Shown here piece after piece: positions 4,009 through 43,157 of a DNA stretch of 64,000 bases (its first letter is position 1; each line of letters starts with the position of its first letter). The DNA is from an uncultured Gemmatimonadales bacterium. GTDB taxonomy: Bacteria; Gemmatimonadota; Gemmatimonadetes; Gemmatimonadales; GWC2-71-9. The stretch spans positions 32,001-96,000 of the forward strand of contig CAWJIM010000016.1 in assembly GCA_963842945.1 (NCBI GenBank), given 5' to 3'. Position numbers and translations under genes: made by a program. Below the pieces are notes generated by a model, which saw nothing but the letters and a program-made list of their open reading frames with translations, searched no databases and was not told the origin of the DNA.

Positions 4009-4600
4009 ATGAGAAGACATTCAGCTGCTGCTCTTCTGGGACTCGGCTGCCTGCTGCTGGCAGGCTGTTCCGATCAGACTGCTCCATCCGGGATGCGGAG
4101 CGATGCCGGTCCGGACCTCGCGGTTACCCATAACACCTGGATCACCCGGAAGGACATGTGGAATACCGAGCGGACCGATTTCGCGACCGCCACGGTGCCC
4201 AATGCGGCCGGCCAGTCGGTGGTGTATGTGATCGGGGGCCGCGGCGCGTCGAACGTGGGGCTCACCAGTGTCATGGCGTATAACGTCGCCACCAACACCT
4301 GGACCCTGAAGAGCGCCCCTCCCCTGGCCTCGGTACGCGATGAGCGGAGCCGGTGTGATCAACGGCAAGATCTACATAACAGGGGGGTACCCGTACGGAT
4401 ATTCCAGTCCTCGGACGCTGATGTATGATCCCGCCAAGAACACTTGGGCCGAGAAGAGCCGCATGCCGGACGTGGAAGATCTGCAGGCCGGTGGTACAGG
4501 GGTGACCGGGGTCATCAATGGCAAGCTCTACGTGGTAACAGAGGGACGGTGCACTGATACGCGGCCCGACTATGACGAGAACGTTGTCCGTGATGGGTGA
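4009..4600 (+). pseudogene. Kelch-repeat lipoprotein K1, 3'-truncated after ~3 blades (frameshift ~4330)
   Basis: Lipobox LLAG-C; ATVPNAAGQSVVYVIGG, YNVATNTWT, GVINGKIYITGGY, GKLYVV then stop; lacks the second half present in paralogs. Confidence 0.75.
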
Positions 4601-4625
4601 TCGCGGTGAAACGGGCGCCGGCTGG

Positions 4626-6677
4626 TCAGAGCCGGGCCCGCCGAAGCAGCTGGGCGTTGACCGCAACGATGACGGTGCTGAGCGACATGAGGATCGCCCC
4701 GACCGCCGGGGACAGCAGGATCCCCCGGTGGGCCAGGATGCCCGCTGCGAGCGGAATGGCGACGATGTTGTAGCCGGCGGCCCACCAGAGGTTCTGCACC
4801 ATCTTGCGGTAGCTCGCCTTCGATAGCGAGACGATCCGCGGCACATCGCGCGGGTCGCTTCGAATCAGCACCACATCGCCGGCTTCGACCGCCACGTCGG
4901 TTCCGGCACCGATCGCGATGCCGACGTCGGCCGTGACCAGCGCCGGCGCGTCGTTCACCCCGTCGCCCACCATGGCGACGCGCTTGCCCTGGCGCTGAAG
5001 CTCCTGGATCTTCGCCGCCTTTTCCTCCGGAAGAACCTGGGCAAAGACTCTGTCGATCCCGAGCTCGGCGGCCACGGCTTCGGCCACCGGCTGAGCATCG
5101 CCGGTCAGCATGGCGACTTCGATCCCCAGCCGATGCAGCCGGTCGACCGCCTCCCGTGATTCGGGACGGATCGCATCGGCCACGCTGAAGGCCGCCAGGA
5201 CTCCGGTCCCTTCGATCAGGTAAATGACGCTCTGTCCCTTGGCCGCCGCCGCTGCGGTAAACTCGTCCAGCTCGCGGGGAAGCGTGAGGTTCAGCTTCCG
5301 CAGCAAATTCGGCCCACCGAGGGCGAGCTTCCGGCCATCCGACCACGGCCTCGACTCCGTAGCCGGACATGGCACTGAAGTACGTGGCGCGGGGAATGTC
5401 GTATCCCTGTTCCTGGGCGCTGGTCACCACCGCCCGCGCGATGGGGTGCTCGGCATCCTGCTCCATTGCGGCGGCCAGCCGGAGCGCCTCTGCTTCGGTG
5501 AGACCGTCAGCGTCCTCATCGCCACCACCCGGTGCTCGCCCAGGGTGAGCGTCCCGGTCTTGTCGAAGACCACTGCGTTGAGCAATCGGGCCTCCTCCAG
5601 GCCGCGCCGGTCGCGGACCAGGAGCCCGCCCCGGGCACCGAGAGTGGTCGAGATGGCGATGACCAGCGGCACGGCCAAACCGAGCGCGTGGGGGCAGGCG
5701 ATGACGAGTACGGTGACCAGCCGCTCGACCGCGAAGGCGGCATCCGCGCCCGCCGCCAGCCACCCGGCCAGGGTGACCGCTCCCGCGCCGAGCGCGACGA
5801 TGGTAAGCCAGTACGCGGCCCGGTCGGCCAGCGCCTGGGCCCGGCTCTTGGACTGTTGAGCCTGCTCGACCAGGCGCATGATCCCGGCGAGCGTGGTGCG
5901 CTCTCCGGTTCCGGTTACTTCAACCCGCAGCGATCCCGAGTCATTCACGGTGCCGGCGATCACTGGGGCGCCGGGGTTTTTCTCGACCGGCCGAGATTCG
6001 CCCGTGATCATGGATTCGTTCACGCTGCTGTGGCCTTCGCGTGCGATGCCGTCTGCGGCTACGCGGGCACCCGGGCGCACCAGGATCAGATCACCCGGTC
6101 GAAGCTCTGCGACCGGCACCTCGACCGGCTCTCCTGTCCCGCTGATACGCAGCGCGGTATCCGGCAGCAGCCTGGCCAGCTCGGCCAGGGCCCCCTGCGC
6201 CTGGGTGATCGACCGCATCTCGATCCAATGGCCCAGCAGCATGATCGTGACCAGGGTGGACAGCTCCTCCCAGAGCGGCATCCCGCGATAGCCCAGAGTC
6301 ACCGCCGCGCTGAAGACGAACGCCACCGAGATCGCCAGGGCGATCAGGGTCATCATCCCCGGCAGGCGCTCGCGCAGCTCGCGAACGGCTCCCTGGATGA
6401 ATGGCCAGCCTCCGTAGAGGAACACAGCGGTGCCGAACACCGGCGGGATCCAGCGGGCACCAGGGAACTGTGGCGGCGCGTACCCGAACGCCCGCTGCAG
6501 CATGTGACCCCAGATCAGGGTCGGGATGGTGAGAAGGAGAGAGATCCAGAACTTGTCCCGGAACATCGCGACACTATGACCGGCGTGTTTGGCATGCGGG
6601 TCGTGTCCGCCGGCCGGATGTTGGCGGTGTGCCGGGGTCGAAAGATTCGGTTGATGTTCGTGCTGCTGGTGGCGCAC
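4626..6677 (-). CDS. copB: Copper-translocating P1B-type ATPase (CopB-like); frameshifts ~5340-5500
   Basis: His-rich N-terminus, CPH in TM6, DKTGTLT, EHP, GDGVND, YN..AIP, MSLST. Confidence 0.85.
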
Positions 6678-6733
6678 GCCGCGCTCAGGCCTTTGTCTGA
6701 GGGCTCAGCCCAGGCTCATTCGCGCTTGCCCGG

Positions 6734-7102
6734 TTATCTAGAGTCATGATGTTCGGCATGTGCGCTATCGTCCCGATCCGACGGTGCCATCCGGGGTCCA
6801 CCCATCATGTGCTCCGAGTGCATCCGCTCCATCATCTGCATCATATGCGACCGCATCTGCTTGCGTTGGGCGACCAGCTCGTTGATCACCGCCGCCATGG
6901 CCTCGACTTTCTTTTGTCCGGTAGCACGATTCATCTCGCCCACCAGCCGGTCCATCCGGGCATCGGCCGCCTGGACCTGCTGCATCATCCTCTCATGGTT
7001 CATCATCATGGCGCTGTCCCGATGCGGAACCGGCTGTTGAGCGGATACCGCGACCGGAGATAGCGTGGCGGCCAGCAGAAAAATTCCAATGTGGCGAATC
7101 AT
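6734..7102 (-). CDS. Small exported Met/His-rich helical protein, possible copper binder
   Basis: Sec signal (..VAVSA-QQ); MMMNHERMM, MRSHMMQMMERMHSEHMM, HAEHHD; directly upstream of copB. Confidence 0.7.
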   Translation of the reverse strand: MIRHIGIFLLAATLSPVAVSAQQPVPHRDSAMMMNHERMMQQVQAADARMDRLVGEMNRATGQKKVEAMAAVINELVAQRKQMRSHMMQMMERMHSEHMMGGPRMAPSDRDDSAHAEHHDSR

Positions 7103-7162
7103 GGGTTCAGCTCCTGTATCGAGTGTACAGCATCAGCATTCTTTCGGCCAAGCTCACCCTGC

Positions 7163-9704: not shown

Positions 9705-9720
9705 CCGGGATCAGCCATTC

Positions 9721-9773
9721 GGAAGAAGTCTTCACGGTGGGTTCAGTCCGGATTCAGGAGCCGGGAGCAAACT
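9721..9773 (+). promoter_or_regulatory. CTTCA-repeat promoter box 4 (CBS gene)
   Basis: GGAAG-N4-CTTCA-N6-GTTCA-N6-ATTCA-N11-CAAACT. Confidence 0.75.
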
Positions 9774-10365: not shown

Positions 10366-10419
10366 TGAAGCAATCTTCATCGCGAGTTCACGCTGGCAGC
10401 GGGAAGCGGTCGCCATCTT
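10366..10419 (+). promoter_or_regulatory. CTTCA-repeat promoter box 5 (nosZ operon)
   Basis: TGAAG-CAAT-CTTCA-N6-GTTCA-N6-(degenerate third unit)-N12-CATCTT, ending 36 nt before the nosZ ATG. Confidence 0.72.
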
Positions 10420-10455
10420 CGGGAGTAGGTGATGCGTATTCCACAAGGAGAGAAG

Positions 10456-12445
10456 ATGAGTTCGATCCGCCATACCGCCCTCGCGGCCGCGCTGGTTGCT
10501 ATCGGAATTTCCGGCTGTAGTCACTCCGGGTCAGGCCGGGTAGGCGACACCGGGGATGCCGCCAAGCAGGTGTACGTAGGCCCCGGCAAATACGATGAGT
10601 TCTATGCCTTCATGTCGGGCGGCTTCGACGGGCAGGTCGGGGTGTACGGCCTGCCGTCGGGCCGGCTGCTCAAGCACGTGCCGGTGTTTTCCCAGAGTGC
10701 GGAGAACGGCTGGGGCTACAGCGAGCAGACCAAGCCGATGCTGGCCACCAGCTACGGGTTCGTGCCCTGGGACGATGCCCACCATCCCCAGCTCTCCCAG
10801 ACCAAGGGCATTGTTGATGGACGATGGCTCTTCATCAACGGCAACAACACTCCGCGCATCGCCCGGCTCGACCTGACCCGCTTCGAGACCGAGGAGATTC
10901 TCGAGATTCCCAACTCGGCCGGCAATCACAGCTCGCCGTTCGTCACCGAGAACAGTGAATACGTCGTGGCGGGAACGCGATTCAGCGTGCCATCGCCGCA
11001 GCGGGACGTGTCGATCGAGGAATACAAGGACGCCTTCAGCGGGGTGCTCAGCTTCGTGCGGGTGGACAGCGCCACCGGTCACATGCAGCTGGCCTTCCAG
11101 ATGAGACTCCCGGCCTTCGACTACGACTTGTCCCACTCGGGCAAGGGCCCGTCGCACGGCTGGTCGTTCTTCACCAGCTACAACAGCGAAGAGGGCAACT
11201 CCAAGCTCGAGGTCAGCGCCTCGCAGAAGGACAAGGACTACATCGCGGCGGTCAACTGGAGACGAGCGGAAGAATGTGTCGCCCAGAACAAGGCTAAGAC
11301 CGAACCGGCCCGCTACGCCCACAACCTGATGGGCGAGGACGGTATCGCCCGGACCGAGTGGGGCTCCAGCGTAACGATGCTGACTCCGGCCGGCTGCCCC
11401 GGGATGGTGTACTATCTCCCCACTCCCAAGTCGCCCCACGGGGTCGACGTGGATCCCACCGGCGAGCTCATCGTGGCCGGCGGCAAGCTCGCGACGGTGA
11501 TCCCGGTGCACTCCTTCAGCAAGATGCAGAAGGCCATCGCGGACCGCGCCTTCACCGGCGAGGTGCACGGAATCCCGGTGCTCAAGTACGAGGCGGTGGT
11601 GGCGGGAGAGGTGCAGAACCCGGGCCTGGGCCCCTTGCACACCGAGTTCGACGGCAAGGGAAACGCCTACACCTCGATGTTCCTCGCGTCCGAGATCGTG
11701 AAGTGGAGCCTCAAGGACTTCAAGGTGCTGGATCGGGCGCCCGACCTACTACTCGATCGGCCACCTGATGATCCCCGGAGGGGACAGCCGCAAGCCCTGG
11801 GGCAAGTACGTCCTGGCGCTGAACAAGATCACCAAGGACCGCTATCTCCCCACCGGTCCGGAGCTGGCCCAATCGGCCCAGCTGTACGACATCAGCGGCA
11901 GCCGGATGAAGCTGCTGCTGGATTTCCCGACCATCGGCGAGCCGCACTACGCGCAGGCCTTGCCCGCCGAGCTGATCCGCGAACGGCAGCTCAAAATGTA
12001 CTCGCTTAAGGACAACAAGGATCCGTTCGCTGTGCGCTCCGAGATGAAGACCAGAGTGGACCGGAAGGGCAACGTGGTTGACGTGCTATTGACGTCGGTG
12101 CGGAGCCACTTCATGCCCGACAAGATCGAAGGAATTCGCCTGGGCGACACCGTCTACTTCCATGTGACCAACCTGGAGCAGGACTGGGACGTACCTCACG
12201 GCTTCGCCATCACCGGAGCAAACAACTCCGAGCTGCTGATGATGCCGGGACAGACCCGTACCCTGATGTGGGTGCCCCAGCGGGTCGGCGTCTTCCCCTT
12301 CTACTGCACCGACTTCTGCTCGGCGCTGCACCAGGAGATGCAGGGGTATGTGCGGGTCTCGCCCCGCGGCTCGAAGGTGGAGCTGGCCTGGAACAGCCCG
12401 ACCTACAAGGGGTGGAGAGGTCGAGGAACTGAATCCGCGGAATGA
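10456..12445 (+). CDS. nosZ: Clade II (Sec-type) nitrous oxide reductase; frameshift ~11740
   Basis: No twin-Arg leader, lipobox-like ISG-C; DAHHP, GNH, SPHG, GLGPLHTEFDG, EPH; CuA site HGF...CTDFCSALHQEM. Confidence 0.95.
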
Positions 12446-17822: not shown

Positions 17823-18914
17823 CTACGGGGTGTACTGCAGGTTGTTCCCCGGCACCGTTCCGCCGACCAGCTCGATCCGCGGCTGGCCCTTGAGCAGCAC
17901 CGTCGTAGCGGCGAGACCGGTGCGGGGGGCCGGCAGCGAGGCCACCGGAGTCCACAGGTCCGTGGCTGGATCGTATACGATGGTCTTGTCGATGGTCTCG
18001 GATCCGCCAAGAGCGGGGTTGTACCGTCTGCCACCGATGACGTACAGCTTGCCTCCCAGCACCGCCGTGGCTGCGCCGGGACGGGCAAATCCCAGGGCGT
18101 TCCTTGGCGTCCACTGGTTGGTGGCGGGATCATAGACGCTGAATCTCGAGTCCTCCCCATATCCGGCCATCACATAGAACTTCCCCGCAATGACCCCGCC
18201 CGCGTACGGTGAATAGGAAAACTCCGTAAAGGGAGAGGGCAGCGTGGTCCACCGGTCGGTGACCGGGTTGTACCGGAAAAAGAAGGGAGCTAGATGCTCG
18301 CTGCATCCCTCAGAGAAAGGGTCCCCCGGAAAGGAGGTGAAGCACGCTGTGACCACGTACAGCTTACCGCTGATCACGCCGGTCACGCCGCCGGCACCCA
18401 CCCTGTAGCGATCGCCCCCCTGGGTAAGTGGGATCTCCGGCATATCCCGCTTCCGGGTCCAGGCATTGGTAGCGGGATCGTACATATAGAGGGCGCTGGT
18501 CACAAAGTCATAGCGGGTTTCAAAGTACCCGCCGGAGACGTAAATCCTTCCGTTGATAACGCCGGCACCATTGGAACCGGCCAGAGGAACCGGCAGCGAA
18601 CGCCGGAAGGTCCAGGTATTGGTCGCGACGTTATACGCCGTCACCTTGCTGAGCGGGATCCGACTGGAGTTGCGGCCGCCGATGGCGTACACCATTGATT
18701 GCCCCGCGGCATTGGTCACCGTGGCCGCCGCCAGCTCGGTCCGGCTCGCGGGCATGTTGGCCAGGGTGGTCCAGCTGCCGGCCAGGACCTTCTCGGGGCC
18801 GGCCGGCGCAGGCTGAGCCGCCCCGGTGGCCTCGGTGGGCGCATCGTTGCCGCAGGCGGCAAGCCAAAAGGTGCTGAGCACCAGCGCGCCGGGCAGCAGT
18901 GAAGGGTATCTCAT
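17823..18914 (-). CDS. Kelch-repeat lipoprotein K2 (intact)
   Basis: Lipobox LAA-C; six Kelch blades (IGG..YNVATNTW, SGGY..YDPATNAW ...); C-end PRIELVGG..PGNNLQYTP. Confidence 0.9.
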   Translation of the reverse strand: MRYPSLLPGALVLSTFWLAACGNDAPTEATGAAQPAPAGPEKVLAGSWTTLANMPASRTELAAATVTNAAGQSMVYAIGGRNSSRIPLSKVTAYNVATNTWTFRRSLPVPLAGSNGAGVINGRIYVSGGYFETRYDFVTSALYMYDPATNAWTRKRDMPEIPLTQGGDRYRVGAGGVTGVISGKLYVVTACFTSFPGDPFSEGCSEHLAPFFFRYNPVTDRWTTLPSPFTEFSYSPYAGGVIAGKFYVMAGYGEDSRFSVYDPATNQWTPRNALGFARPGAATAVLGGKLYVIGGRRYNPALGGSETIDKTIVYDPATDLWTPVASLPAPRTGLAATTVLLKGQPRIELVGGTVPGNNLQYTP

Positions 18915-18953: not shown

Positions 18954-19007
18954 ACTCTACAACCAAGGTCTGGAGAGGACGGTGAGATCGGGGTGAAGAA
19001 GTCTTAA
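18954..19007 (-). promoter_or_regulatory. CTTCA-repeat promoter box 6 (Kelch K2)
   Basis: Sense: TTAAG-N4-CTTCA-N6-TCTCA-N6-TCTCC-N12-TAGAGT. Confidence 0.68.
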
Positions 19008-21946: not shown

Positions 21947-22000
21947 TGAAGACTCTTTCATGCCCGCTTCAGCCTCGGCTCAGCAGGTGTTTCCCAGATT
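21947..22000 (+). promoter_or_regulatory. CTTCA-repeat promoter box 9 (cheB-like gene; probably leaderless)
   Basis: TGAAG-N4-TTTCA-N6-CTTCA-N6-GCTCA-N12-CAGATT-N6-ATG. Confidence 0.75.
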
Positions 22001-26249: not shown

Positions 26250-26303
26250 TGAAGGATTCTTCATGGGCGGTTCCTCCCCACGTCATTCCTCCTATCAGAC
26301 ATT
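26250..26303 (+). promoter_or_regulatory. CTTCA-repeat promoter box 10 (protease-Kelch gene)
   Basis: TGAAG-N4-CTTCA-N6-GTTCC-N6-CGTCA-N12-GACATT. Confidence 0.68.
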
Positions 26304-26408
26304 AACTGTACGAACACGCTGAGAGTGACCGGGTCATTCCTCCAGATGCGGACCGCATCAGTTCCTGCCCGGTGCTTTCGGCAGGCTTTTGCGAGAAGGG
26401 AGTGACTC

Positions 26409-28662
26409 ATGTATACAGGATCGCTCGTAACCGCCGCTGCCGTGGCGCTTGCTGTCCTCGGCTGCCAGAACGAGCCGACAGCTCCAAGGGCCGAGATGCT
26501 TCTCGCGCTGACCGGTCGGCTGCACGCCCACTCGAAGGCTGGTTCCATGTCATATGGGTTGACCCTGGGCCGGGGCACGGTCCGGCGAGCGTCCGATACC
26601 AGCTCGTTGACGCTCGGGGGCATGGTACCGAGCTGGAATTAAGTCCGGGGCTGGGCGCCCGATGGGGAGGGCCGCGCGGACTCGACCGGCGGAAGGTCCG
26701 GGTCGATGGAACTCCGTGGCCAGGGGCCGGTTTCGCGTCCACTCGATCGAGCCGGTCGCCGGGCCTGCCGGTGCTGGGCCGTCCGCAGTACAAATCGGCT
26801 CCCGTCCTTACGTCACCATCCTCTGCAAGTTCTCCGACATTGCGGCAGAGCCCCAGACGGTCGCGACGTATAGCCTGGACCACCGGCACCTCCTACCCCG
26901 GACTCGATCACTACTGGCGCGAGCTGTCGTACAACAAGATGAACGTCACCGGCAGCATCGTGGTTGGGTGGTACACGCTGCCGCACCCGATGTCCATTAC
27001 TACCCAGGACGCCGCCTGGGACCTGGTGAGCCTGACTGCGCGATTGCACCGCGCGCCGCGGATTCCGACGTGAACTTTCCCCAGTTCTAGGGCATCAACC
27101 TGCAGGTCAACGGCCCCGGTAGGATGGTGCCTTGGGGGCGGCTGGACGCTCACCGCGACGGCCAGACCAAGAACTACGGTATGACATGGCTGGAGCCATG
27201 GGACCACGCGGCCTTATACGCCCACGAGGACGGTCACACGCTCGGGCTGCTACACTCCTCCGGCCCATATGCCAGCCTTACGATTCGCGGTGGGACGTGA
27301 TGAGCTACTGGAGTACTGGGGACGGCCTCGACGAGCTATGGCGTCCCGCAGCACACCATCAGCTACCACAAGGACCTGCTCGGGTGGATCCCCGCAGCCC
27401 GGAAGCTCACCGTGGGGCCGAACACCAGCGGGACGATCACGCTGGAGCGCCTCGCTCTGCCCGGCCCGGGTAATTACCTGATGGCCCAGATCCCCATGGA
27501 CAACGCCCCGGGCCAGTTCTACACGGTGGAGGCCCGCCGGCGAGTAGGATACGACAACGGCTTCCCCCGGCAACGCAGTGGTGCTGCACCGGGTCGATCC
27601 ACCGAATGGCCCTGGATCGGTTATGACCGTTAGCTCAGGTGGTGGACGTCGACAACAATGGCGACCCGAACGATGACGGCGCGAGTGGACGCCGGGCGAG
27701 ACCTTCACCGATGCGGCCAACAAAATCACGGTCACGGTCAACGCGCAGACCGCCACCGGCTTCCGGGTCACGATCAAGCGCGGGACGCCCCGGCCTGGGT
27801 GAGCCGGGCTTCGATGTCGACCGCCCGCCGAGCCCTTGCCGTCGCGGTCGCTAACGGCAGCGTCTACGCCATCGGCGGAGCGAATGCCGCAGGGCACGGT
27901 GCTCCGGACGGTGCAGGCCTACAGTCCGAGCCACCAACGGATGGACCACCAGGGCCTCGATTCCGGCGGCTCGGCAGGGCGGCAATGGCGCCGTCACGAT
28001 CAATGGGACCGTGTACCTGCCCGGCGGCGAGGACGCGGCGGCGAGCGCTGACCCGGACGCTGTACGCCTACAATACGGCCACCAACGTATGGAGCACCCG
28101 CGCCCAGATGCCGGCATATGCCGCCTGCGGCGGATCGGCCGTGATCGCCGCGAGGGTCTACGTCTTCAGCGGCTGCACCCGCTCCAGCACCGGCGCCACG
28201 ATCAACGCGGGGGTGCTGCACCGGTACAACCCGACTACCAATACCTGGACCACGCTCAAGGCTGCTCCGGTCACGCACTTTCGGCCGGTGGTCGCGGCCA
28301 TCGGCGGCAAGCTCTACGTGGCGGGCGGAAACAACGCCGCGGGCACCGCCCTGCGCCGAGTGGATGTGTATGACCCGGCGACGAACACCTGGTCCACCGG
28401 AGCGGCCATCCCCACTGCTCGAGCGAACGCCGGGGCAGCCTTCATCGCAGGCAAGTGGTATGTCTTCGGTGGCAAGAAGGGGACGACCTATCTGAATACT
28501 CTCGAGGTCTACGATCCGGCCGCCAACGCCTGGACCAGCCGGCCCGCGATGCCCACGGCACGGGCGGCGTTGGGGGTCGGAGGTGTCAGCGGACTGATCT
28601 ACGCCGTCGGAGGCCGGAACGCGACCGCTGCACTCGCTACCAACGAGCGCTTCACGCCCTAG
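26409..28662 (+). CDS. Lipoprotein with metzincin (M6-like) metallopeptidase domain and C-terminal Kelch propeller (K3); many frameshifts
   Basis: Lipobox VLG-C; YW.E.SY.KMNV.G; HEDGHTLGLLH at ~27223; WDVMS Met-turn; YHK..LGWI; Kelch blades from ~27800. Confidence 0.75.
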
Positions 28663-32377: not shown

Positions 32378-32492
32378 CTACGGGACGTATTGGAGGTTGT
32401 TGGGCACCCCACGGCAACAGCCGATCACTTCGATCCTCGGCTTGCCGTTCAGAAAGACTCGACTTGCGGCTGCGACTTGAGGATCGGGACAT
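32378..32492 (-). pseudogene. Internally deleted Kelch paralog (start joined out of frame to last ~30 codons)
   Basis: GGAGG-N6-ATG at 32492; other frame encodes AASRVFLNGKPRIEVIGCCRGVPNNLQYVP*, matching the family C-terminus. Confidence 0.75.
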
Positions 32493-32583: not shown

Positions 32584-32628
32584 AGAATGCATCAGGAGGG
32601 CGGAAACCCGTGTGAACCCGGTGTGAAG
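32584..32628 (-). promoter_or_regulatory. CTTCA-repeat promoter box 11 (Kelch remnant)
   Basis: Sense: CTTCA-N6-GTTCA-N6-TTTCC-N12-CATTCT. Confidence 0.72.
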
Positions 32629-32638
32629 GATTCCATAC

Positions 32639-32688: not shown

Positions 32689-33774
32689 CTATGGGATGTA
32701 CTGAAGGTTGTTGCCTGGTGGGCTCCCGCCCACCACCTCGATCCGGGGCTGGCCGTCGAGGAAGACCCGGATTGCCGCGATGCCGTAGCGTGCGGTCGTC
32801 ATTGGTGCGGCGGTGGTCCAAGTATTGGTGATCGGGTGATACACCCGGGTGCTTCGGACCGGCTGCCACCCGTTGGCGCCGGGTTGCCGGCCACCCGTCA
32901 GGTACAGCATGGCGCCCTGGACCGTTGCGGCTGCATCCACGCGCACCTGGCCTCCGGTGACCTTCATGGTCCACTGGTTGGTAACCGGATCATACACTTC
33001 GATGGTCTTGCCGTCGGTCAGGTAGAGCTTGTCGTAGAGCACCCCACCCATGTGACCCGCCTGGTATACACCTTTGGGACTCGGAAGCCGGGCCCACCGG
33101 TTGGTCACCGGGTTATAGCGGAAGAAGTTCGATATCCCTGGCCGGCCACCCTCCACAGACCCACACTCGTCATAGTAGAATTCTTCAGGCACCCTTTCAA
33201 AGCAGGTACTGACCACGTAGAGCTTGCCCTTGATCACGCCGGTCAGGCCAAGGGCGCCAGACTCCGGCATGTAGGCCTTCCTGGTCCAGATATTCGTGGC
33301 CGGATCGTACTGGAAGAGTCCCCCGACGGGATCTGCGGCCTGAGAATCTTCGTCCAGATAGTACCCGCCGGAGATGTAAATCTTCCCGTTGACCACCCCA
33401 GTCCCGTTCGTGCCATATAGAGCAGTGGGCAGCCTTGCCTTCTGACTCCAGGTGTTGGTGGCGACGTTGTACGCCTGCACCCAGTCCAGGCTCATATCGG
33501 GCACGGAGTACCCATTGGGACTCTGCCCGGACCCCCGACCACCGATGACATAAACGACGGCCTGGCCGGCCGGATTCGATACCGTTGCGATGGCAGGCCA
33601 CTGGACCTCGTGGGGGATGTCGCGCCGGGTGACCCAGGTATTGTGCGCGACAGCGAGCTCCGGACCGGTGACAGTTGGAGTCTTGGTTGGGGCGGTGGTC
33701 TCGTCGGAGCCGCAGGAGGCCAAGGCCAGCACACCAAGCCCGAGGACGGTGTACCCCAGTGGAAGGTGCCTCAT
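32689..33774 (-). CDS. Kelch-repeat lipoprotein K4 (intact)
   Basis: Lipobox LAS-C; same framework as K2/K5; ends PRIEVVGG..PGNNLQYIP. Confidence 0.9.
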   Translation of the reverse strand: MRHLPLGYTVLGLGVLALASCGSDETTAPTKTPTVTGPELAVAHNTWVTRRDIPHEVQWPAIATVSNPAGQAVVYVIGGRGSGQSPNGYSVPDMSLDWVQAYNVATNTWSQKARLPTALYGTNGTGVVNGKIYISGGYYLDEDSQAADPVGGLFQYDPATNIWTRKAYMPESGALGLTGVIKGKLYVVSTCFERVPEEFYYDECGSVEGGRPGISNFFRYNPVTNRWARLPSPKGVYQAGHMGGVLYDKLYLTDGKTIEVYDPVTNQWTMKVTGGQVRVDAAATVQGAMLYLTGGRQPGANGWQPVRSTRVYHPITNTWTTAAPMTTARYGIAAIRVFLDGQPRIEVVGGSPPGNNLQYIP

Positions 33775-33839: not shown

Positions 33840-33893
33840 AAATTGCATCCAGAGTGGCGAAAGGAGGGTGAACCCGTCGTGAAGAAACCCTCA
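33840..33893 (-). promoter_or_regulatory. CTTCA-repeat promoter box 12 (Kelch K4)
   Basis: Sense: TGAGG-N4-CTTCA-N6-GTTCA-N6-TTTCG-N12-CAATTT. Confidence 0.78.
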
Positions 33894-35424: not shown

Positions 35425-37281
35425 TCAGGGAGGGGTCTTGGCTGGAAGGGCTGCCCGGAGTGCATTCAGTATCACCGCCACATCGATTCCCTCCTGAAGC
35501 AGCGCTCCAGCGACCGGCGGGATATAGCCTAGACTGGCCACGACCATCGCCGCCCCACTCAGACCGAGCCCTGTCCAGATGCTCTGCCGGGCAATGCTCA
35601 GGGTGCGCCGGCTGATGCGGATCGCCTCGCCCACCCGGGTGGGATCGTCAGCCAGGATCACTGCGTCAGCGGCCTCGGCGCTGATGCCCCCGCCGCTCGA
35701 AGCCAGGGCAATTCCGACCGTGGCGGTGCTGAGCGCCGGGGCATCGTTGGTGCCGTCGCCCACCATGAGGACCGGCTCCCCTTCCTTCATCAGTCCCTGC
35801 ACCCAGGCGACCTTTTCTGCCGGGAGGAGATCACCGTGAGCCTCCTCAATCCCAACCGCCTGGGCTACAGCTGCGGCATTGGCCTGGTCATCGCCAGAGA
35901 GCAGGAGGATCCGCCGGACGCCCAGCCGCCGGAGCTGAGAAATGAATTCAGCCAGCTCGGGGCGGAGCCGGTCGGCATACTCGATCACTCCGGCGCCACG
36001 GCCGTCCACCGCCACATACGCCCTCAGCTCGACGCCGGGCGTCTGCGCCAGTAGCTCGCGCAGTGGCGCTTCAGCCGCCGGATGACGGTGCACCAGGAAG
36101 GACCAGCCACCCACAGTCACGGCGCGCCCTTCGACTGCGCCGGTCACCCCTTGGCCGGAAGCTTCGGTGACGTTCCCCGCCTCGGGCAGCTTAATTCCGC
36201 GAGCTGACGCTTCTTGGACGACGGTCCGCGCGAGCAGGTGGCCGGAGCCCTGCTCGATACTGCCGGCCAGCCGCAGCACGTCTTCCTCGGTGAAGGGCGG
36301 GACGGCAAGCACCCGGTCCACTCGGGGCCGGCCGATGGTGAGCGTGCCAGTCTTGTCGAACACAGCCACCACGATCCGGCCCAGCTGCTCCAGGGCGGTG
36401 CCGTGACGGAAGATGATCCCCCGGCGAGCCGCCCGGTTGATGCCGCCAACGATCGCGACCGGGGTCGCCAGGATGAGAGGACAAGGAGTCGCGACTACCA
36501 GCACCGCGAGCACCCGCGTCGGATCGCGAGAGAGAAGGTATGCCGCGGCACAAACCACCAGGGTCAGCGGCGTGAACCAGACTGCGTACCGGTCGGCCAA
36601 CCGCTGGAGCGGTGCCTTGCTCTCCTGAGCGGTGCGAACCAGCTCCACGATCCTGGCGTACTGGCTTTGGCTCGCCGGAGCCGTGACCCGTACCGTGAGG
36701 GGCCCCTCGAGGTTGAGGCTGCCACTCATCAGCCCGACATCGGGATGGGCGCTCACCGGCACCGGCTCCCCCGTCATCCGGGAGGCGTCCACGTGAGACC
36801 GCCCTTCGATGACGACCGAGTCGCAGGCCAGCAGCTCCCCGGGCCGGAGCAGGATAACATCTCCCACCGCGACGGTCTCGGCGGCGACATCTGTGACCTC
36901 ACCGGCGACCAGACGGTGAGCGATCCGGGGCGCTGCGGCCTCCAGCTCCCGGACCGCCTCCGATGCCCGGCCCTGAGCATAGCGCTCCAACGCCTCCCCA
37001 CCGGTCTGCATCAGGACTACGATAAGGCCGGCGAGCGGCTCCCTCAGAAGGAGTGAGGTGACAATGGCCAGCATCGCCACCAGATCGGCGGCAAAGCGGC
37101 CCGAGGCGATGCCCCGAAGCGTCTGCCACACCACTGGAATACCGGTGAGAACCAATCCAGCATTCCACACCGCGGCGGCCACATTGCTCCGCGCCGCGAG
37201 ATGGAGCAGCAACCCGCTGATGATGCAGAGAAGAGCGCCGGCCGGAAGGAGGTAGGTGCGGCCGACCTGACCCGGAGCTAG
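35425..37281 (-). CDS. Heavy-metal P1B-type ATPase (P1B-5-like, PCP/QExxD); start uncertain
   Basis: VATPCPL, DKTGTLT, GDGTND, LQEGID..VILNALR. Confidence 0.85.
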   Translation of the reverse strand, partial: LAPGQVGRTYLLPAGALLCIISGLLLHLAARSNVAAAVWNAGLVLTGIPVVWQTLRGIASGRFAADLVAMLAIVTSLLLREPLAGLIVVLMQTGGEALERYAQGRASEAVRELEAAAPRIAHRLVAGEVTDVAAETVAVGDVILLRPGELLACDSVVIEGRSHVDASRMTGEPVPVSAHPDVGLMSGSLNLEGPLTVRVTAPASQSQYARIVELVRTAQESKAPLQRLADRYAVWFTPLTLVVCAAAYLLSRDPTRVLAVLVVATPCPLILATPVAIVGGINRAARRGIIFRHGTALEQLGRIVVAVFDKTGTLTIGRPRVDRVLAVPPFTEEDVLRLAGSIEQGSGHLLARTVVQEASARGIKLPEAGNVTEASGQGVTGAVEGRAVTVGGWSFLVHRHPAAEAPLRELLAQTPGVELRAYVAVDGRGAGVIEYADRLRPELAEFISQLRRLGVRRILLLSGDDQANAAAVAQAVGIEEAHGDLLPAEKVAWVQGLMKEGEPVLMVGDGTNDAPALSTATVGIALASSGGGISAEAADAVILADDPTRVGEAIRISRRTLSIARQSIWTGLGLSGAAMVVASLGYIPPVAGALLQEGIDVAVILNALRAALPAKTPP

Positions 37282-37976
37282 AGCGCGGGCGAGATCTCCG
37301 CCTCGCCGCCCCGGCGCAGGCTGAATCCCACTCCCCGCACCGTGCTCAGGAGCCGCTCCCCCGCGGCCTCGCTCAGTTTCCGGCGCAGATTCCCCACGTG
37401 GACGTCCACCACGTTGCTCTCCGGATCGAAGTGCATGTCCCATACCTTCTCCAGGAGCGTGGTCCGCCTGACTACCTCTTCCGGATGAAGCATGAAGTAC
37501 TCGAGTAGCTGGAACTCCTTCGCTGTCAGATCCAGCCTCTTGTCATTGACCGTAGCAATGTGGCGCAACCGGTCCAGCGCAATCGGCGGATACCGCAGCA
37601 GGTCCAGTCGCTCGGCCCCGCCCCGGCGATGGAGGGCCCGGATCCGGGCCAGCAGTTCGTCGAACTGGAATGGCTTGGCCAGATAGTCGTCGGCACCAGC
37701 GTCGAGACCGCGGACGACGTCCTCTTTTGCGTCGCGCGAGGTCAGCATCAGGATCGGTGTCTTCCGGCCTTCCCGCCGGAGCTCGGTGGCCACCTGAAAC
37801 CCGTTCTTTTTGGGAAGCACGATGTCCAACAGGATCATGTCATAGTCGTAGACGTGGGCCAGCATCGTCGCCTCCTCCCCGTCAGGGGCGACGTCTACGA
37901 CATACCCCTCTTCCCTGAGGCCCTGCTCGATGAATCCGGCGACTTTGCGGTCGTCTTCCACAACGAGGATCTTCAT
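37278..37976 (-). CDS. OmpR/PhoB-family response regulator (no adjacent kinase)
   Basis: MKILVVEDD, LLD, GLDAGADDYL.KPF, LT.KEF.LL, SNVVDVHV..LR.K, TVRGVGF. Confidence 0.95.
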   Translation of the reverse strand: MKILVVEDDRKVAGFIEQGLREEGYVVDVAPDGEEATMLAHVYDYDMILLDIVLPKKNGFQVATELRREGRKTPILMLTSRDAKEDVVRGLDAGADDYLAKPFQFDELLARIRALHRRGGAERLDLLRYPPIALDRLRHIATVNDKRLDLTAKEFQLLEYFMLHPEEVVRRTTLLEKVWDMHFDPESNVVDVHVGNLRRKLSEAAGERLLSTVRGVGFSLRRGGEAEISPAL

Positions 37977-37982
37977 GTATGA

Positions 37983-38035
37983 AATCTGGGTGGTCGTGGT
38001 TAAGGCTGGCGGAAGGCCGCCTGAAGCTTTCTTCA
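37983..38035 (-). promoter_or_regulatory. CTTCA-repeat promoter box 13 (regulator's own promoter; probably leaderless)
   Basis: Sense: TGAAG-N4-CTTCA-N6-CTTCC-N6-CTTAA-N11-CAGATT-N6-ATG. Confidence 0.78.
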
Positions 38036-38132: not shown

Positions 38133-38177
38133 CTTCGCCCCGACTTCATCCTCCCTTCATAACGCTCGAGCTAAGTT
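38133..38177 (+). promoter_or_regulatory. CTTCA-repeat promoter box 14 (DUF2892-USP operon)
   Basis: CTTCG-N6-CTTCA-N6-CTTCA-N12-TAAGTT. Confidence 0.78.
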
Positions 38178-38233
38178 TGGGCCAGGCGAGAGATCCTGAA
38201 CCGATAGTGGCGGCAGTCGAAGGAGGACACATT

Positions 38234-38443
38234 ATGACTCGAAATATCGGCAACCTGGAACGGATCGCCCGATTGATCGTAGGCGTCCTGATCCTGGGTC
38301 TGTACGGCGCCCTCCCGTCGCCCTGGCGATACGTCACTCTGATTGGATTACTCCCTCTGGGCAGCGGCTTGACCGGCTTCTGCCCGCTATACGCCCAACT
38401 GGGCTGGAACCGCTGGCATCCGACCGGCAGGAGGAGCATATGA
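38234..38443 (+). CDS. DUF2892 (YgaP-like) small membrane protein
   Basis: M.RNIG.LER.AR...G ... G...L..G..G.CP.Y..LG; AGGAGG RBS. Confidence 0.85.
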   Translation: MTRNIGNLERIARLIVGVLILGLYGALPSPWRYVTLIGLLPLGSGLTGFCPLYAQLGWNRWHPTGRRSI

Positions 38444-39414
38444 TGCGCCAGATCCAATCCATTCTCGTGCCGCTCGACGGCTCCTCGCTGGCCGAGGAGG
38501 CTCTGCCCCTGGCCCAGGCCATAGCCGAGCGCTCCCGGGCCAAGCTCAAGCTGGTCCTGATCCATGAGCCCCACATCCTGATGGAGCCTGGCCCCGCCTA
38601 CACCAAGGTGGAGCTCGCGATGCAGAAGGCCGACCGGGATTACCTCAAGTCGGTGACTACCCGACTCCGCAGCGTGCTCGGCCGCTCGGTATCCTCGGCG
38701 GTGCTGCAGGGAATTCCGGTGGCACAGACGCTGGCCTCGTATGCCCGGGAGCTGGGTGTTGATCTGGTGGTGATGACTACGCATGGTCGGGGCGGGCTTC
38801 GGCGGGCCTGGCTGGGAAGCGTCACCGACCAGCTGATCCGATTCTCGGAGACCCCCATCCTGGTGGTTCGGCCCGGCGAAGCAGGAGTGGCCAAGCCCGC
38901 GACGGAGATAAAGGAGGTTCTGGTTGCTCTCGATGGGTCACCTCTGGCGGAGGCGGCGCTCGAGCCGGCTGTCACCCTGGCCAAATTGTGGGACGCCGAG
39001 ATCTCGCTGGTGCAGGTGGTTCGTCCGATCATTCTGACCGATGGTGCACCGCTTACCTTCCCTAGTGGCTATTCGGAACAGGTCACAATCTTCCGCCGCG
39101 AAGCCGCCCAGGACTACATCAGGGATCTGGCGGAGCGCCTGCGTGAATCGGGAATCAGAGCAAACGGAGTGGCCGTCATCGGCGCCGCTGTTCCCGAGAC
39201 ACTGATCGATATGGCAGCGCCCGAGCGGGTCAGTCTGATAGTGGCAGCCACCCACGGGCTGGGCGGTCTCAAGCGGATGGTACTGGGGAGTGTGGCTGAT
39301 AAGCTGGTACGCGGCGCAAACGTACCAACTCTAGTGGTCCGCCCTGCCGGCCGCAGGGCGCGCCGGAACTCGGAGGAGATGAATGTTCCGGTCAGTGCGG
39401 GCGCGTCCTTGTGA
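38440..39414 (+). CDS. Tandem universal stress protein
   Basis: Two ILV.LDGS..AE.AL / LVV..THG.GG....LGSV.D.L units. Confidence 0.92.
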   Translation: MMRQIQSILVPLDGSSLAEEALPLAQAIAERSRAKLKLVLIHEPHILMEPGPAYTKVELAMQKADRDYLKSVTTRLRSVLGRSVSSAVLQGIPVAQTLASYARELGVDLVVMTTHGRGGLRRAWLGSVTDQLIRFSETPILVVRPGEAGVAKPATEIKEVLVALDGSPLAEAALEPAVTLAKLWDAEISLVQVVRPIILTDGAPLTFPSGYSEQVTIFRREAAQDYIRDLAERLRESGIRANGVAVIGAAVPETLIDMAAPERVSLIVAATHGLGGLKRMVLGSVADKLVRGANVPTLVVRPAGRRARRNSEEMNVPVSAGASL

Positions 39415-39476
39415 TGTCGGAGCCGGTGTGAACCGGTCGTGACCGACCATCCATCTCGGTCAAAGCCAGCGGGCGA

Positions 39477-39530
39477 TGAAGCGATCTTAATCTGAGCTTC
39501 ATGCCTCCTTCGCAATGCCGGTCTCATTTT
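39477..39530 (+). promoter_or_regulatory. CTTCA-repeat promoter box 15 (Acg copy 2)
   Basis: TGAAG-N4-CTTAA-N6-CTTCA-N6-CTTCG-N12-CATTTT. Confidence 0.8.
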
Positions 39531-39574
39531 TGACCGGCATTGCCCCTGATCCGCCGAACCCGAGGAGGCACCCG

Positions 39575-40572
39575 ATGGTTCCGCAGAACCCCAGCGTCTG
39601 GGAGGTCACGCCCGATAACTTTCCCCATGCCGCAGCGATCGATACTCAGCTCCGCTTCCTTCTTCGCTACGCGATCCTGGCGCCTTCGCCCAGAAACTCG
39701 CAGCCCTGGACCTTCGCCATCCGCGACAACAAGGTCTTTCTGCTGGCCGACCATGGCCGGAGCCAGCCGGTACTCGATCCCGACCGGCGCGAGCTCTACA
39801 TCGGGCTGGGGTGCGCGCTGGAAAATCTCCTGGTGGCAGGCGAGCACTTCGGGCTCAGCCACGCGGTGAGCTACTTCCCGGACCGCTGGCATCCGGAACT
39901 GGCTGCAACCGTGTTGTTCGAGCCGGGCGGAACTCCCTCAGCGGTCCGGGTGGGCGCCACCCTAGAGACGATTCGGCGGCGGCACAACGACACGGCGCTG
40001 TACCATTCGATCCCGCTGCCGGAAGAGCTGTTGCGCCGGCTGACTGCCTGCTGCGACGAGCCCGATGTGCGGGTAGAATTGACCGAGGACAGTTTGTTGC
40101 ACGATTGGATTCAGGCGCTAACGGTGCAGTCCGATAGCGTGGACCTGGCTAACCCGGGCTTTCGGATGGAGCTGGAGTACTGGATGAGCCAGGGGATCTT
40201 CGGGCCGGACCGAAACGCTTCGGCAGAGGACAATCCGGCCACCATTCTTCAGCGGCAACGGGCGATTACCCTGGGTCAGCTCAGGGTGGAGAGCGCTCCG
40301 GTGCTGGGGCTGATTCGGGGGCGGGCGACAGCCATCTGGTCCATGTGCGCGCAGGACAGCTGTTCGAGCGCATCTGGCTCACGGCGACCGGCCTCGGCAT
40401 CAGTATCAACCCCATGAGTCAGACGCTGCGCCGGCCGGAGCTAAGGGCGGTCGTCTCCGAGCTGATGCCTGCGGTGGGCTGGATTCCTCAGCACCTGTTT
40501 CGGGTGGGATACTCCTCCGCGCCACCGAAGCTGCGAAGCCCTCGCAGAACGGTCGAGGACGTCATGCTCTGA
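39575..40572 (+). CDS. Acg-family nitroreductase-like protein (copy 2); frameshift ~40320
   Basis: Paralog of 15943..16939; AILAPSPRNSQPW, GCALEN, ANP.FRMEL.YW, PRR..EDV. Confidence 0.85.
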
Positions 40573-40576
40573 CCAC

Positions 40577-40624
40577 AGTGCCCGAGGCGAGAGTCGAACT
40601 CGCACGAGGTTGCCCTCGGCGGAT
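40577..40624 (-). repeat. att-type direct repeat of the 3' half of tRNA-Leu
   Basis: 48 bp identical to 43649..43696 (AGTGCCCGAGGCGAGAGTCGAACTCGCACGAGGTTGCCCTCGGCGGAT). Confidence 0.95.
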
Positions 40625-40702
40625 CCTCGCAGGCGAGTCGGATGGTCCTGGGGCTCGCCTACTGGAGATATAAAGAGGATCGACGCAAACGTGCTTAAGC
40701 GT

Positions 40703-41101
40703 TCAGACGCTCGCTGGTGCAGGTCTCGATTGCTTCTGCAAGACCCGCCCGACCGCCGCGCTGAGATCGTCGAGCAGGAAGGGCTTAGTAAGCACTGGAC
40801 GGTCAAGCTCTAGGTCGGAGCGAAAGGCTGACATAAAAATGACCTCCGGAGCGTTAGGTAATGCCGCCAGACGGTCGGCGAGTTGATAGCCATCGAGCTC
40901 GGGCATCAGTAGATCGCAGAGCACAAGGTGGACTTCTACGCCAGACTGCTCGAGTACCGTCAGTGCTTCTACGCCATTCCCTGCAGTCAGGACGCGATAT
41001 CCGGCCTGCTCAACCTTTCGCGCTATGACGCGACGAACACCTTCGTCATCGTCGACCACCAACACTGTGTGCGGGAGTAGCTCAGGGGCGGGGGCATTCA
41101 T
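40703..41101 (-). CDS. Single-domain response regulator receiver
   Basis: VLVVDDD, LVLCDLLMP.LDG, FMSA, KPF. Confidence 0.85.
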   Translation of the reverse strand: MNAPAPELLPHTVLVVDDDEGVRRVIARKVEQAGYRVLTAGNGVEALTVLEQSGVEVHLVLCDLLMPELDGYQLADRLAALPNAPEVIFMSAFRSDLELDRPVLTKPFLLDDLSAAVGRVLQKQSRPAPASV

Positions 41102-41281
41102 GAGACACCTTCTCTTGCTCGGGGGCGGCATAGGAATCAGCCGTATGGGGCCGACGGAGTGGCGAATCGCAGGAAGCGCAGGACGCACTGGAAGGGAGTC
41201 GCTGAATGAATCTACCCCGCACGCCGGTTGAGCACCAACGGAGCCCAGGAAGTGCCGTCAGCGCACCCCGGCCTGAGCTCG

Positions 41282-41560
41282 CTAAAACCGTTGGTGGAAT
41301 GTGATCTTCACCGTCTGTGGGCTGTTCGTCGCTCCGGTAGCCCACACCTTGATTTTGCCATAATAGGTGCCGCGAGGCAGGCCTGTGCCATCGACCCAAA
41401 CCTTCATGACAGAGGGCGCTGTCCCAATTCTCGGCGACCGCTTGATCCAGGTCGCACTCTTGGTGGATGTCCAGTTGAGGATCCCACCGCCGGTGTTGCT
41501 GATGGACAAGGAGCCTGACGACGGCCAGCAGAAGCCACGAACTTTAGTTCGACCATCACA
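41282..41560 (-). pseudogene. BACON/Ig-like domain fragment
   Basis: LSISNTGGG.LNWT....ATWI...P..GTAPS....V....L..GTY.G.I.V...GATNSPQTV..T; no clear start. Confidence 0.55.
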
Positions 41561-41649
41561 CCAGGCAGGGGTGGCGAGTTCGAAGCCTCTCCGACTGAGA
41601 GCGATAGTGCGGGCCGCCTCCGTCACCAGCGCAGTAGAGCGGCGGCTCG

Positions 41650-42014
41650 ATAAGGTCATTCCCTATGTTTTCCACCGGAACGGAAAGCCGATTCACGGAT
41701 ACCTAGACGGCTGGCGGGCAGCCTGCAAACGGGCAGCGGTCGTGAAGCGGGGCGAGCTGGAGGCGGTTGTCCGTCCCCACCTGCTCAACCGGACCCCTCA
41801 CGATTTCCGGCGCACTGCAGCGCGGAACCTCATTCGCGCTGGCGTCCCTCAGCACGTGGTGATGAAGCTCTGCGGCTGGAAAACGGATGCGATGTTCCGC
41901 CGCTATGCCATCGTTGATGAGCGAGACCTGCGGGACGCCGTGGCCAAACTAGCTGGATTCTGGGCACCCGACATAGCGCACAGTGAACGCTTCTTCACAG
42001 AGACATCACGATGA
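41650..42014 (+). pseudogene. Tyrosine recombinase/integrase C-terminal remnant
   Basis: YVF, HDFRRTA (HxxR), GW, MF.RY catalytic Tyr; N-terminal part absent. Confidence 0.85.
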
Positions 42015-42037
42015 CTTCTGAGCGTCGTTGGCATATT
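41984..42037 (+). promoter_or_regulatory. CTTCA-repeat promoter box 16 (Kelch K5)
   Basis: TGAAC-N4-CTTCA-N6-CATCA-N6-CTTCT-N12-CATATT. Confidence 0.75.
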
Positions 42038-42059
42038 GGGGGCAACACAGGAGGTCTAT

Positions 42060-43157
42060 ATGACATACCGGCCAGTGTTGCCCGTCGTCGTGCTCAGCGC
42101 GCTCTGGCTCGCCGCCTGCGGTAACGATACCCCTACAGCCCCTAGCCACCCAGCCCAGCCGGCCAGCGGCGGGGCCGAAATGGCGGTAACGAGTAACAGC
42201 TGGATCACCCGCGCCGCCCTGCCCGCTTCCTTCCGGGCTGAAATGGCCACCGCGACGGTGACGAACGCGGCGGGGCAGTCCGTCGTGTACTCTATCGGCG
42301 GTGTCGACGCCATTGGACATCCGCTCACCAACGTCGCGGCGTACAACGTGGCGACTAACACCTGGACCTCCCGACGGGCGTTGCCCAGACGGTTGGCCTC
42401 GACCAATGGCGCGGGAGTCATCAACGGCAAAATCTACGTGTCGGGAGGGTATTCCTCCCTTGACGACGCGCTCTCGTGGAGGCCATGGCTCTACATGTAT
42501 GATCCCGCCACGAATACCTGGACCCGGAAGCGTGACCTGCCAGCGGTGACGGTGTACGGCGTCCGCGAATACCCCGCCGGCGAGGGCGTGACCGGGGTCA
42601 TCGGGGGGAAACTCTACGTCGCCAGCCACGTTTTCGTTGATTATGGGGACCCATCCTCGGGTCTTGACAGGGGGTACGGTACACTGTTCCTCCGGTACAA
42701 TCCGCGGACAGACGAGTGGGTCAGACTCCCGGAACCGTTTGCAACAGAGGGAGAGGCCGTACGGCCCACCGGCGGTGGGGTCATTGATGGAAAGTTCTAT
42801 CTGATGGGCGCGACGACTGGAGACAGAAACGGTCGTCTCGCCGTGTATGATCCGGCCACGGACGAGTGGACCACAAGAACCCCGCTACGCCTGGGCCGGC
42901 CGTCGGCGGCATCGGCAGTACTCGGAGGCAAGCTCTACGTCATGGGCGGAAGCCGCTACAACGCTAAAACGGGGTACTCTGACCTCCTGGACGTTACCAT
43001 CGCGTATGATCCAGTGAAGGACACATGGACTCCCCTGGCCCCGCTGCCGAGCCCTCGGTACCGAGTATCGGCCACCAGGGTCTTCCTCAATGGCCGGCCG
43101 CGGATAGAGTTGGTAGGTTGGTTTGCGCCGGGGAACAACCTGCAGTATGTGCCGTGA
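42060..43157 (+). CDS. Kelch-repeat lipoprotein K5 (intact)
   Basis: AGGAGG RBS; lipobox LAA-C (WLAACGND as in K2); ends PRIELVG..PGNNLQYVP. Confidence 0.9.
   Translation: MTYRPVLPVVVLSALWLAACGNDTPTAPSHPAQPASGGAEMAVTSNSWITRAALPASFRAEMATATVTNAAGQSVVYSIGGVDAIGHPLTNVAAYNVATNTWTSRRALPRRLASTNGAGVINGKIYVSGGYSSLDDALSWRPWLYMYDPATNTWTRKRDLPAVTVYGVREYPAGEGVTGVIGGKLYVASHVFVDYGDPSSGLDRGYGTLFLRYNPRTDEWVRLPEPFATEGEAVRPTGGGVIDGKFYLMGATTGDRNGRLAVYDPATDEWTTRTPLRLGRPSAASAVLGGKLYVMGGSRYNAKTGYSDLLDVTIAYDPVKDTWTPLAPLPSPRYRVSATRVFLNGRPRIELVGWFAPGNNLQYVP

Follow-up and report, generated by a model that had tools for sequence, protein, structure and literature searches.

What is a dispersed family of Kelch-repeat lipoproteins doing in an uncultured soil bacterium? 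A 64,000-nucleotide stretch from a Gemmatimonadales genome (contig CAWJIM010000016.1, positions 32,001 to 96,000; the window) carries the genes K1, K2, K4 and K5 and a remnant of a further copy. A sequence-only reading of the window had described near-invariant strands, hypervariable loops and a co-regulated, birth-and-death repertoire of surface binders. Our analysis leans, if only slightly, towards envelope binders without catalytic function, a small set with rapid gene turnover that is induced at low oxygen.

Scaffold and variable face of the Kelch lipoproteins

The strand motifs and loop sequences quoted in the sequence-only reading are all present in the window. The intact proteins K2, K4 and K5 (Table 1) share one N-terminal layout, a lipobox cysteine followed by a Pro/Thr-rich tether and then the Kelch repeats. 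Scores against Pfam Kelch_1 reach 101–129 bits, which places them among Kelch-repeat proteins, and the lipobox cysteine (Cys21) is found in 115 of 115 aligned homologs, a lipoprotein signal at the sequence level. The overall identity of the three proteins is 42–57%; it is 64–77% in the framework, 28–45% in the D-A loops and 16–23% in the B-C loops. The cysteine pair ascribed to two of the compared loops is there in K2 and K4 and missing from K5.

An AlphaFold2 model gave a six-blade propeller with a mean predicted local distance difference test score of 88 and residues 1–40 disordered. Its top structural matches are KLHL17, KEAP1 and KLHL12 (Z 32–33, root-mean-square deviation 1.6 Å; KLHL17 Z 33), ahead of the sialic-acid mutarotase NanM/YjhT (Z 29, 18% identity). 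With loops assigned from the strand list of the model rather than from its coordinates, mean entropy over the 115 homologs is highest in the B-C loops (2.21 bits), followed by the D-A loops (1.63), with strands at 0.71 and the turns of the opposite face at 0.6–0.8, and length variation is confined to the B-C and D-A loops. As had been anticipated, variation on the predicted structure is restricted to the B-C/D-A face instead of being evenly spread, the loops far exceeding the strands in entropy. The aromatic richness claimed for the loops proved mild and partial, since Phe, Trp and Tyr make up 12% of B-C loops against 7.3% of long open reading frames of the genome, but only 5.6% of D-A loops.

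In Kelch domains the DA and BC loops make the substrate pocket, on a face named bottom in PMC6650413. The KEAP1/KLHL Kelch domains (PDB 6hrl, 6fmp, 2vpj) have the same six-blade fold and the same pocket loops. They belong, however, to BTB-fused proteins of the eukaryotic cytosol, and their pocket is kept from ortholog to ortholog, whereas the family described here consists of stand-alone bacterial lipoproteins in which the pocket face is the most variable part. K2 also has family-specific conserved hairpins at residues 62–78 and 334–361 (NAAGQS; LNGxPRIE; NNLQYxP) in the adjacent blades 1 and 6; on the model they lie on the face opposite the variable loops and could possibly form a constant docking surface.

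A family profile built from the 115 homologs matched 47 of 97 genomes of one Gemmatimonadales genus at E<=1e-60, with 0–6 strong matches per genome; both figures are lower bounds, as 20 candidates per genome were scored. None of 139 genomes of the same order outside the genus matched it (13 candidates scored per genome). The 97-genome tallies include G003, G048, G084 and G085, genomes flagged as unpublished, on which alone no conclusion rests and which are omitted from all training sets and from the 93-genome comparison below. Relatives that carry names are Gemmatimonadales, and the closest full-length database relatives are 81% identical to K2 and 70% to K4. A protein atlas search returned only generic Kelch clusters, and we found no earlier description of the family in the literature searched, a search that left out most subscription journals and supplements. 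No fixed operon partner emerged: the biggest neighbour cluster consists of other Kelch genes (12 of 92 loci), and the rest are heterogeneous. A read search for within-population variants found no close reads: the best run shared 0.08 of the words, and contigs were short and mostly less than 90% alike.

Box A and a candidate low-oxygen switch

Every copy, the remnant included, is preceded by a promoter element, box A, with the consensus TGAAG-N4-CTTCA-N6-(C/T)TCA. A matrix built from 17 Kelch promoters of other genomes recovers K4, the copy on C24, K2, the remnant, K1 and K5, together with CBS, USP and nosZ promoters. A second matrix, built to avoid circularity, was derived from 37 sites in other genomes, none of them in front of a Kelch gene. 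Out of 8.6 million positions it places the six family promoters of this genome at ranks 5, 6, 14, 15, 17 and 20; at score 18 it has 19 hits, whereas permuted versions have 0–1. The common box and its retrieval by a matrix that had seen no Kelch promoter argue for the co-regulation that had been proposed. In the genus, the exact pattern taken from the Kelch sites has 131 matches in 52 of 97 genomes (reversed control, 2), and the genes downstream at the 34 loci read include Sec-dependent nosZ (5 loci), Acg, CBS, USP and Kelch. An A at +49 and a T at +53, present in 32 of 32 box-A Kelch promoters, form a −10-like element outside the scoring matrix. Four-half-site forms of box A, with overlapping matches on both strands, occur at G007:C59, G054:C210, G070:C14, G071:C143 and G110:C7; those in G007 and G070 lie between divergent genes.

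The candidate activator is an OmpR-family response regulator (Response_reg and Trans_reg_C domains) encoded in the window. Its orthologs are 81–94% identical across the genus and often lie within kilobases of box A sites. Among 93 genomes, regulator and box occur together in 44, the regulator alone in 17, the box alone in 5 and neither in 27, with a significance that is inflated by kin that are not independent. CRP/FNR and NarL-type regulators also have matches in the genome as alternative binders of box A, and we prefer the OmpR regulator because of its proximity and its own box. At other loci, including that of a second regulator copy in this genome, a GAF-HisKA-HATPase kinase stands directly upstream of the regulator. 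Its GAF domain matches the DosT/DosS structures (2vzw, 2w3d) with an E-value of 4e-42 and keeps, aligned to 2vzw, the conserved histidine motif GFPPHHPPM. Genes near kinase and regulator include nos, cbb3-type oxidase, USP, HSP20 and BON, and these clusters also hold multicopper-oxidase genes. We take the histidine of the motif to have a heme role. Because box A tracks an OmpR regulator that adjoins a DosT-like heme-GAF kinase, low-oxygen control of the box A genes is likely. A conserved module of USP, heme-GAF histidine kinase and OmpR regulator is seen at L338:8377-10396 (G000:C24 near 486–488 kb) and across L334–L340; lying beside nos and cbb3-type oxidase genes, it is a candidate regulator of clade II nosZ in the genus.

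This arrangement recalls the mycobacterial DosS/DosT-DosR system, whose regulator DosR is of the LuxR/NarL type and whose regulon includes USP, Acg, CBS and HSP20 genes. The heme-GAF-type sensor domain and the USP, Acg, CBS and HSP20 targets are shared. In contrast, the kinase here has one GAF domain followed by HisKA, the regulator is of the OmpR family rather than LuxR-type, the box is different, and the regulon includes clade II nosZ and Kelch lipoproteins.

More distant family members carry another element, box B (CTTGA-N6-CTTGA followed by a TANNNT-like element), which is found on sister members and not on K1–K5. The genome has 26 exact box B sites against 2 in the reversed control, and under a strict test 12 of the 26 lie upstream of a lipobox protein; the box B lipoproteins (RCC1, Kelch, subtilase-Kelch) have similar Cys..PT.P..PxLA leaders. 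With 13 BTAD matches in the genome, box B is a candidate SARP/BTAD-controlled lipoprotein regulon. SARP-type promoters (PMC10972967) share the 11-bp direct-repeat period of box B but have another repeat sequence and serve antibiotic clusters rather than lipoprotein targets. A quick tree was built from 83 of the 104 recovered genes, after removal of those that were low-scoring, short or frame-broken. It puts 31 of 32 box-A genes in one 34-member clade with a Shimodaira–Hasegawa-like approximate likelihood ratio test (SH-aLRT) value of 91, the box-B genes forming the rest. A cysteine pair in the blade-3 loop occurs in 25 of the 34 clade members. On the simple reading, one clade appears to have been recruited into the low-oxygen regulon out of a wider family of lipoproteins that has box B as its promoter.

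Table 1 Kelch genes, box A sites and related features (window coordinates unless a contig is given; rank is among 8.6 M positions)
Feature	Position	Strand	Remarks
K1	4009-4600	+	Kelch lipoprotein with broken frame (near 4320), ends inside blade 3
K2	17823-18914	-	intact six-blade Kelch lipoprotein, 363 aa, lipobox Cys
K4	32689-33774	-	intact Kelch lipoprotein, 361 aa, lipobox Cys
K5	42060-43157	+	intact Kelch lipoprotein, 365 aa, lipobox Cys, without loop Cys pair
Remnant	32378-32492	-	ATG joined to last ~35 codons of deleted tandem copy
Multi-domain lipoprotein	26250-28662	+	frame-broken; includes box A at 26250-26274; C-terminal Kelch domain of other subfamily
RCC1-repeat lipoprotein	2562-3785	-	divergent from K1; similar lipobox/Pro-rich leader; weak box A 3892-3916(-)
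Box A of K1	3903-3927	+	rank 17
Box A of CBS-domain gene	9721-9745	+	
Box A of Sec-dependent nosZ	10366-10390	+	gene at 10429-12445, split in assembly
Box A of K2	18983-19007	-	rank 14
Box A of CheB-like and flavodoxin/HemG-like genes	21947-21971	+	
Box A of remnant	32613-32637	-	rank 15; promoter and 5' leader closely match relatives L003/L043
Box A of K4	33869-33893	-	rank 6
OmpR-family response regulator	37278-37976	-	candidate box A activator; own box A 38011-38035
Box A of Acg-family FMN oxidoreductase	39477-39501	+	
Box A of K5	41984-42008	+	rank 20; overlaps end of tyrosine-integrase fragment 41367-42014
Box B examples in G000	C19:33295, C19:34687, C21:102346, C23:109153, C6:99403		

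Several neighbouring features deserve mention. The Kelch gene ending at 28662, passed over by the sequence-only reading, belongs to a multi-domain subfamily apart from K1–K5. Its G088 ortholog has 739 residues and an HExxHxxGxxH motif, and lipoproteins that combine this motif with a C-terminal Kelch domain under box A are seen in the window (26408-28662) and at L149:11128-13347. The motif reads as that of a metalloprotease; the middle domain has no Pfam protease family match. A parallel RCC1-repeat lipoprotein family has at least eight loci, five of them clustered on C19, and often adjoins Kelch genes in relatives; besides the window gene, its loci include G000 C19 28–35 kb, C23:107881 and C18:146508. 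The tyrosine-integrase fragment runs into the box A of K5 and has related fragments at C16:26062 and C18:75336. A GTGAGCGG-type repeat lies 3' of K5 (43170-43290), with look-alikes on at least six contigs.

Turnover of genes and a selection signal in loops

Elsewhere the genome holds one more close copy (C24, frame-broken), a distant stand-alone copy on C6 and a short fragment on C19, as well as several multi-domain proteins whose last domain is a Kelch domain of another subfamily. Two of the genes first listed as family members need qualification. K1 is a Kelch lipoprotein, but its frame is broken and it ends within blade 3; from an ATG at 4009 it runs to a stop that abuts the 3' end of a convergent P-type ATPase gene, and no Kelch sequence follows 4600 at this locus. 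Because nosZ, RecQ and AtuA are also split in the window, the break may be an assembly error, and single frame breaks are in general weak evidence for pseudogenes in an assembly with many split genes. The remnant is a real gene relic, though not a 198-residue open reading frame: a promoter is kept, an ATG follows near 32492, and then come only about the last 35 codons.

We compared the window with G088, which is 83–93% identical over the collinear parts of the island. There the K1 locus holds only a C-terminal Kelch fragment, K5 was not found in the 80 kb examined, and the K2 ortholog is frame-broken, with loops diverged more than strands. The gene at the K4 locus has the promoter and leader of K4 (about 80% at the nucleotide level) on another propeller (51% at the amino-acid level), the first blade of which is 86–94% identical to K1. 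Loops at syntenic loci are not invariant, as they would be in conserved one-to-one orthologs. The remnant promoter matches L003 and L043, whose bodies group with the G088 K4-locus gene, and the downstream flank in G088 is 73% identical to that of the remnant against 50% to that of K4. A likely history, judged from these alignments, is a tandem pair whose second body was joined to the K4 leader by recombination in one lineage and deleted in the other. Against it, the last 99 nucleotides of the G088 gene are nearer to K4 (77%) than to the remnant (68%), a discrepancy that may reflect decay.

Exchange of modules is seen more widely. The nearest neighbours of leader and body are discordant in 9 of 32 box-A genes; L036, for instance, shares a body with L002 (90%) and leader DNA with L195 (83%). 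Blade-by-blade neighbours are mostly concordant. Birth and death with recombination therefore stands, given syntenic loci that differ in G088 and promoter-plus-leader modules swapped between propeller bodies. The repertoire claim stands in part: this is a small, fast-turning paralog family, but not a dedicated, immune-style repertoire generator, because loop dN/dS (the ratio of nonsynonymous to synonymous rates) is below 1, genomes have few matches and no reverse transcriptase was found (no PF00078 match in the 87% complete genome). No template repeat was seen in the paralog comparisons. Polymorphic surface lipoproteins and the targets of diversity-generating retroelements combine a constant scaffold with a variable binding face and recombination between copies. 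The Kelch family resembles them in all three respects and differs in having no reverse transcriptase found, no silent cassette array, and few dispersed copies with their own promoters.

Over 12 disjoint pairs, dN/dS was 0.19 in the framework, 0.31 in D-A loops, 0.50 in B-C loops (confidence interval 0.41–0.59) and 0.41 in the leader. Site tests used our own implementation of models M1a and M2a, which has no terms for recombination or multi-nucleotide changes, on three quartets of Kelch genes. Twice the log-likelihood difference was 25.5, 14.0 and 15.5, with omega of 3.9–7.6 at 6–10% of sites, compared with 0, 0 and 2.1 for the control genes kinase, nosZ and USP; none of 30 simulations under M1a exceeded 4.0. 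Masking the columns next to gaps changed the three quartet values to 24.8, 5.6 and 10.5. Of the 30 sites that have a posterior above 0.8 in the unmasked data, 27 fall in loops, which make up less than half of the columns. The top sites of quartet A (279, 296, 333 and 353) come after the D-A Arg or the Gly-Gly motif, positions that we take to line the KEAP1 pocket. Single sites show 3–4 residues among four sequences that are 77–94% identical (H/D/S/W at 279, A/W/V/D at 353). The proposed dN/dS check thus has two outcomes: site models support positive selection in loops, but loop averages of 0.31–0.50 remain below 1.

Function of the family and its rivals

If the family is a set of low-oxygen-induced envelope binders, the DosT-like heme-GAF kinase would sense oxygen, nitric oxide or carbon monoxide and phosphorylate the OmpR-type regulator, which would then bind box A and activate a sigma70-type promoter. 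The lipoprotein would be exported and held on its Pro/Thr-rich tether, and the B-C/D-A pocket would grip an external protein or peptide, possibly a glycan, so as to attach to it or capture it in soil microsites that are poor in oxygen. Specificities would be renewed by duplication, by point substitution and by homologous recombination where leader and blade 1 meet in a conserved junction. The same genome also encodes a subtilase that carries a related Kelch domain, a fusion that fits protein or peptide capture.

Several observations weigh against this picture. On the regulatory side, the regulator occurs without an exact box match in 17 genomes and the box without the regulator in 5, the regulator of the window has no adjoining kinase, and the SH-aLRT value of the box-A clade rests on a quick tree. 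Variable B-C and D-A loops are also the ordinary Kelch pattern. There is no net positive selection, as average dN/dS stays below 1 even in B-C loops and near the leader value. Quartet B drops to p 0.06 after gap-column masking, the quartets do not include K2, K4 or K5 (an 11-sequence set with K2 and K5 gave p 0.03), and recombination and multi-nucleotide changes can inflate M2a. As to location, at least two acidic residues follow the lipobox cysteine in 40 of 83 proteins, a pattern that loosely resembles but does not match the Bacteroidetes surface-export signal, K-(D/E)2 or Q-A-(D/E)2 (PMC5080379), and the proteins may be periplasmic.

A bolder version, which we hold to be possible but not probable, sees a population-level binder library: a heme oxygen sensor would switch on Kelch receptors whose promoter-plus-leader and propeller modules are reshuffled by recombination, the pocket residues chasing a co-evolving partner such as a phage, a predator, a rival toxin or the surface of a partner cell. 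The loop-site signal, rapid loss and module swapping would fit an arms race in dense low-oxygen aggregates, with the proteins conferring immunity in the periplasm, or serving as decoys, against phages, predators or the toxins of competitors. We regard such a conflict role as unlikely, since no toxin or secretion family was recognised among the annotated neighbour clusters (27 representatives), the genes share a physiological regulon with nosZ, and 58 viral loci (<=39% identity) held no close copy. Slightly less credence goes to dispensable paralogs under relaxed constraint, with exposed loops drifting and the site-model signal an artefact of recombination or multiple hits. Loop dN/dS does bracket the leader value, many copies are broken, and half of the genus has no strong match; yet the framework is held at 0.19, the −10 elements are intact in all 32 promoters, single sites show 3–4 residues among four close sequences, and the quartet A signal survives gap masking.

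We consider it improbable that these are enzyme paralogs with divergent substrates, whether NanM-like sugar mutarotases or epimerases or galactose-oxidase-like proteins, even though many homologs are labelled 'N-acetylneuraminic acid mutarotase' at source and the YjhT/NanM fold is close. The pocket of NanM/YjhT has conserved catalytic Glu and Arg residues, and galactose and glyoxal oxidases have a conserved His/Tyr/Cys copper-radical site. In the 34-member clade, the polar loop residues at 80% conservation are R51, N115, K155 and N357 only; no His, Asp, Glu or Cys of the pocket loops reaches that level, the count of zero acidic residues being made without residue-level alignment to NanM. Since histidine reaches 80% conservation in none of the clade's columns, the copper site of galactose or glyoxal oxidase is not matched. 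NanM identity, the common database label, is not supported by scores that fall far below the cut-offs (PRK14131, 44–64 bits against 416; TIGR03547, 36–55 against 256), and KLHL/KEAP1 match better in structure. NanM/YjhT (2uvk), likewise an exported bacterial six-blade Kelch protein and the source of the automatic label, thus differs from a family that is 18% identical to it, multi-copy, loop-variable and without invariant catalytic candidates. We give least weight to a supporting role in low-oxygen respiration, in which the proteins would, for example, serve NosZ, copper proteins or alternative oxidases as chaperones or scaffolds in the periplasm. The box shared with nosZ and the cbb3-type oxidase and multicopper-oxidase genes in the kinase/regulator clusters speak for such a role, but a conserved client should mean a conserved pocket, nosZ is strongly purifying, and several genomes with nosZ and box A (e.g. 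G007, G073, G102) have no strong family match.

The Kelch fold and its variable face are already known. What is new is a family of lipoproteins confined to one genus, its inclusion in what is likely a hypoxia/nosZ regulon, the swapping of modules and the selection signal in the pocket loops. Kelch genes of this family are widely mislabelled as sialic-acid mutarotases. Box A, regulator and sensor together are a candidate control of nosZ in the genus, and the alleles provide a naturally occurring collection of Kelch binders whose variable positions have been mapped. If the preferred reading of low-oxygen-induced envelope binders is true, an uncultured soil lineage with a clade II N2O reductase would remodel its envelope with variable binders under the nosZ switch, a testable connection between the sensing of oxygen, the consumption of N2O and either attachment or conflict in soil; the population-level library, if true, would give bacteria a lipoprotein analogue of variable immune receptors that is coupled to N2O respiration.

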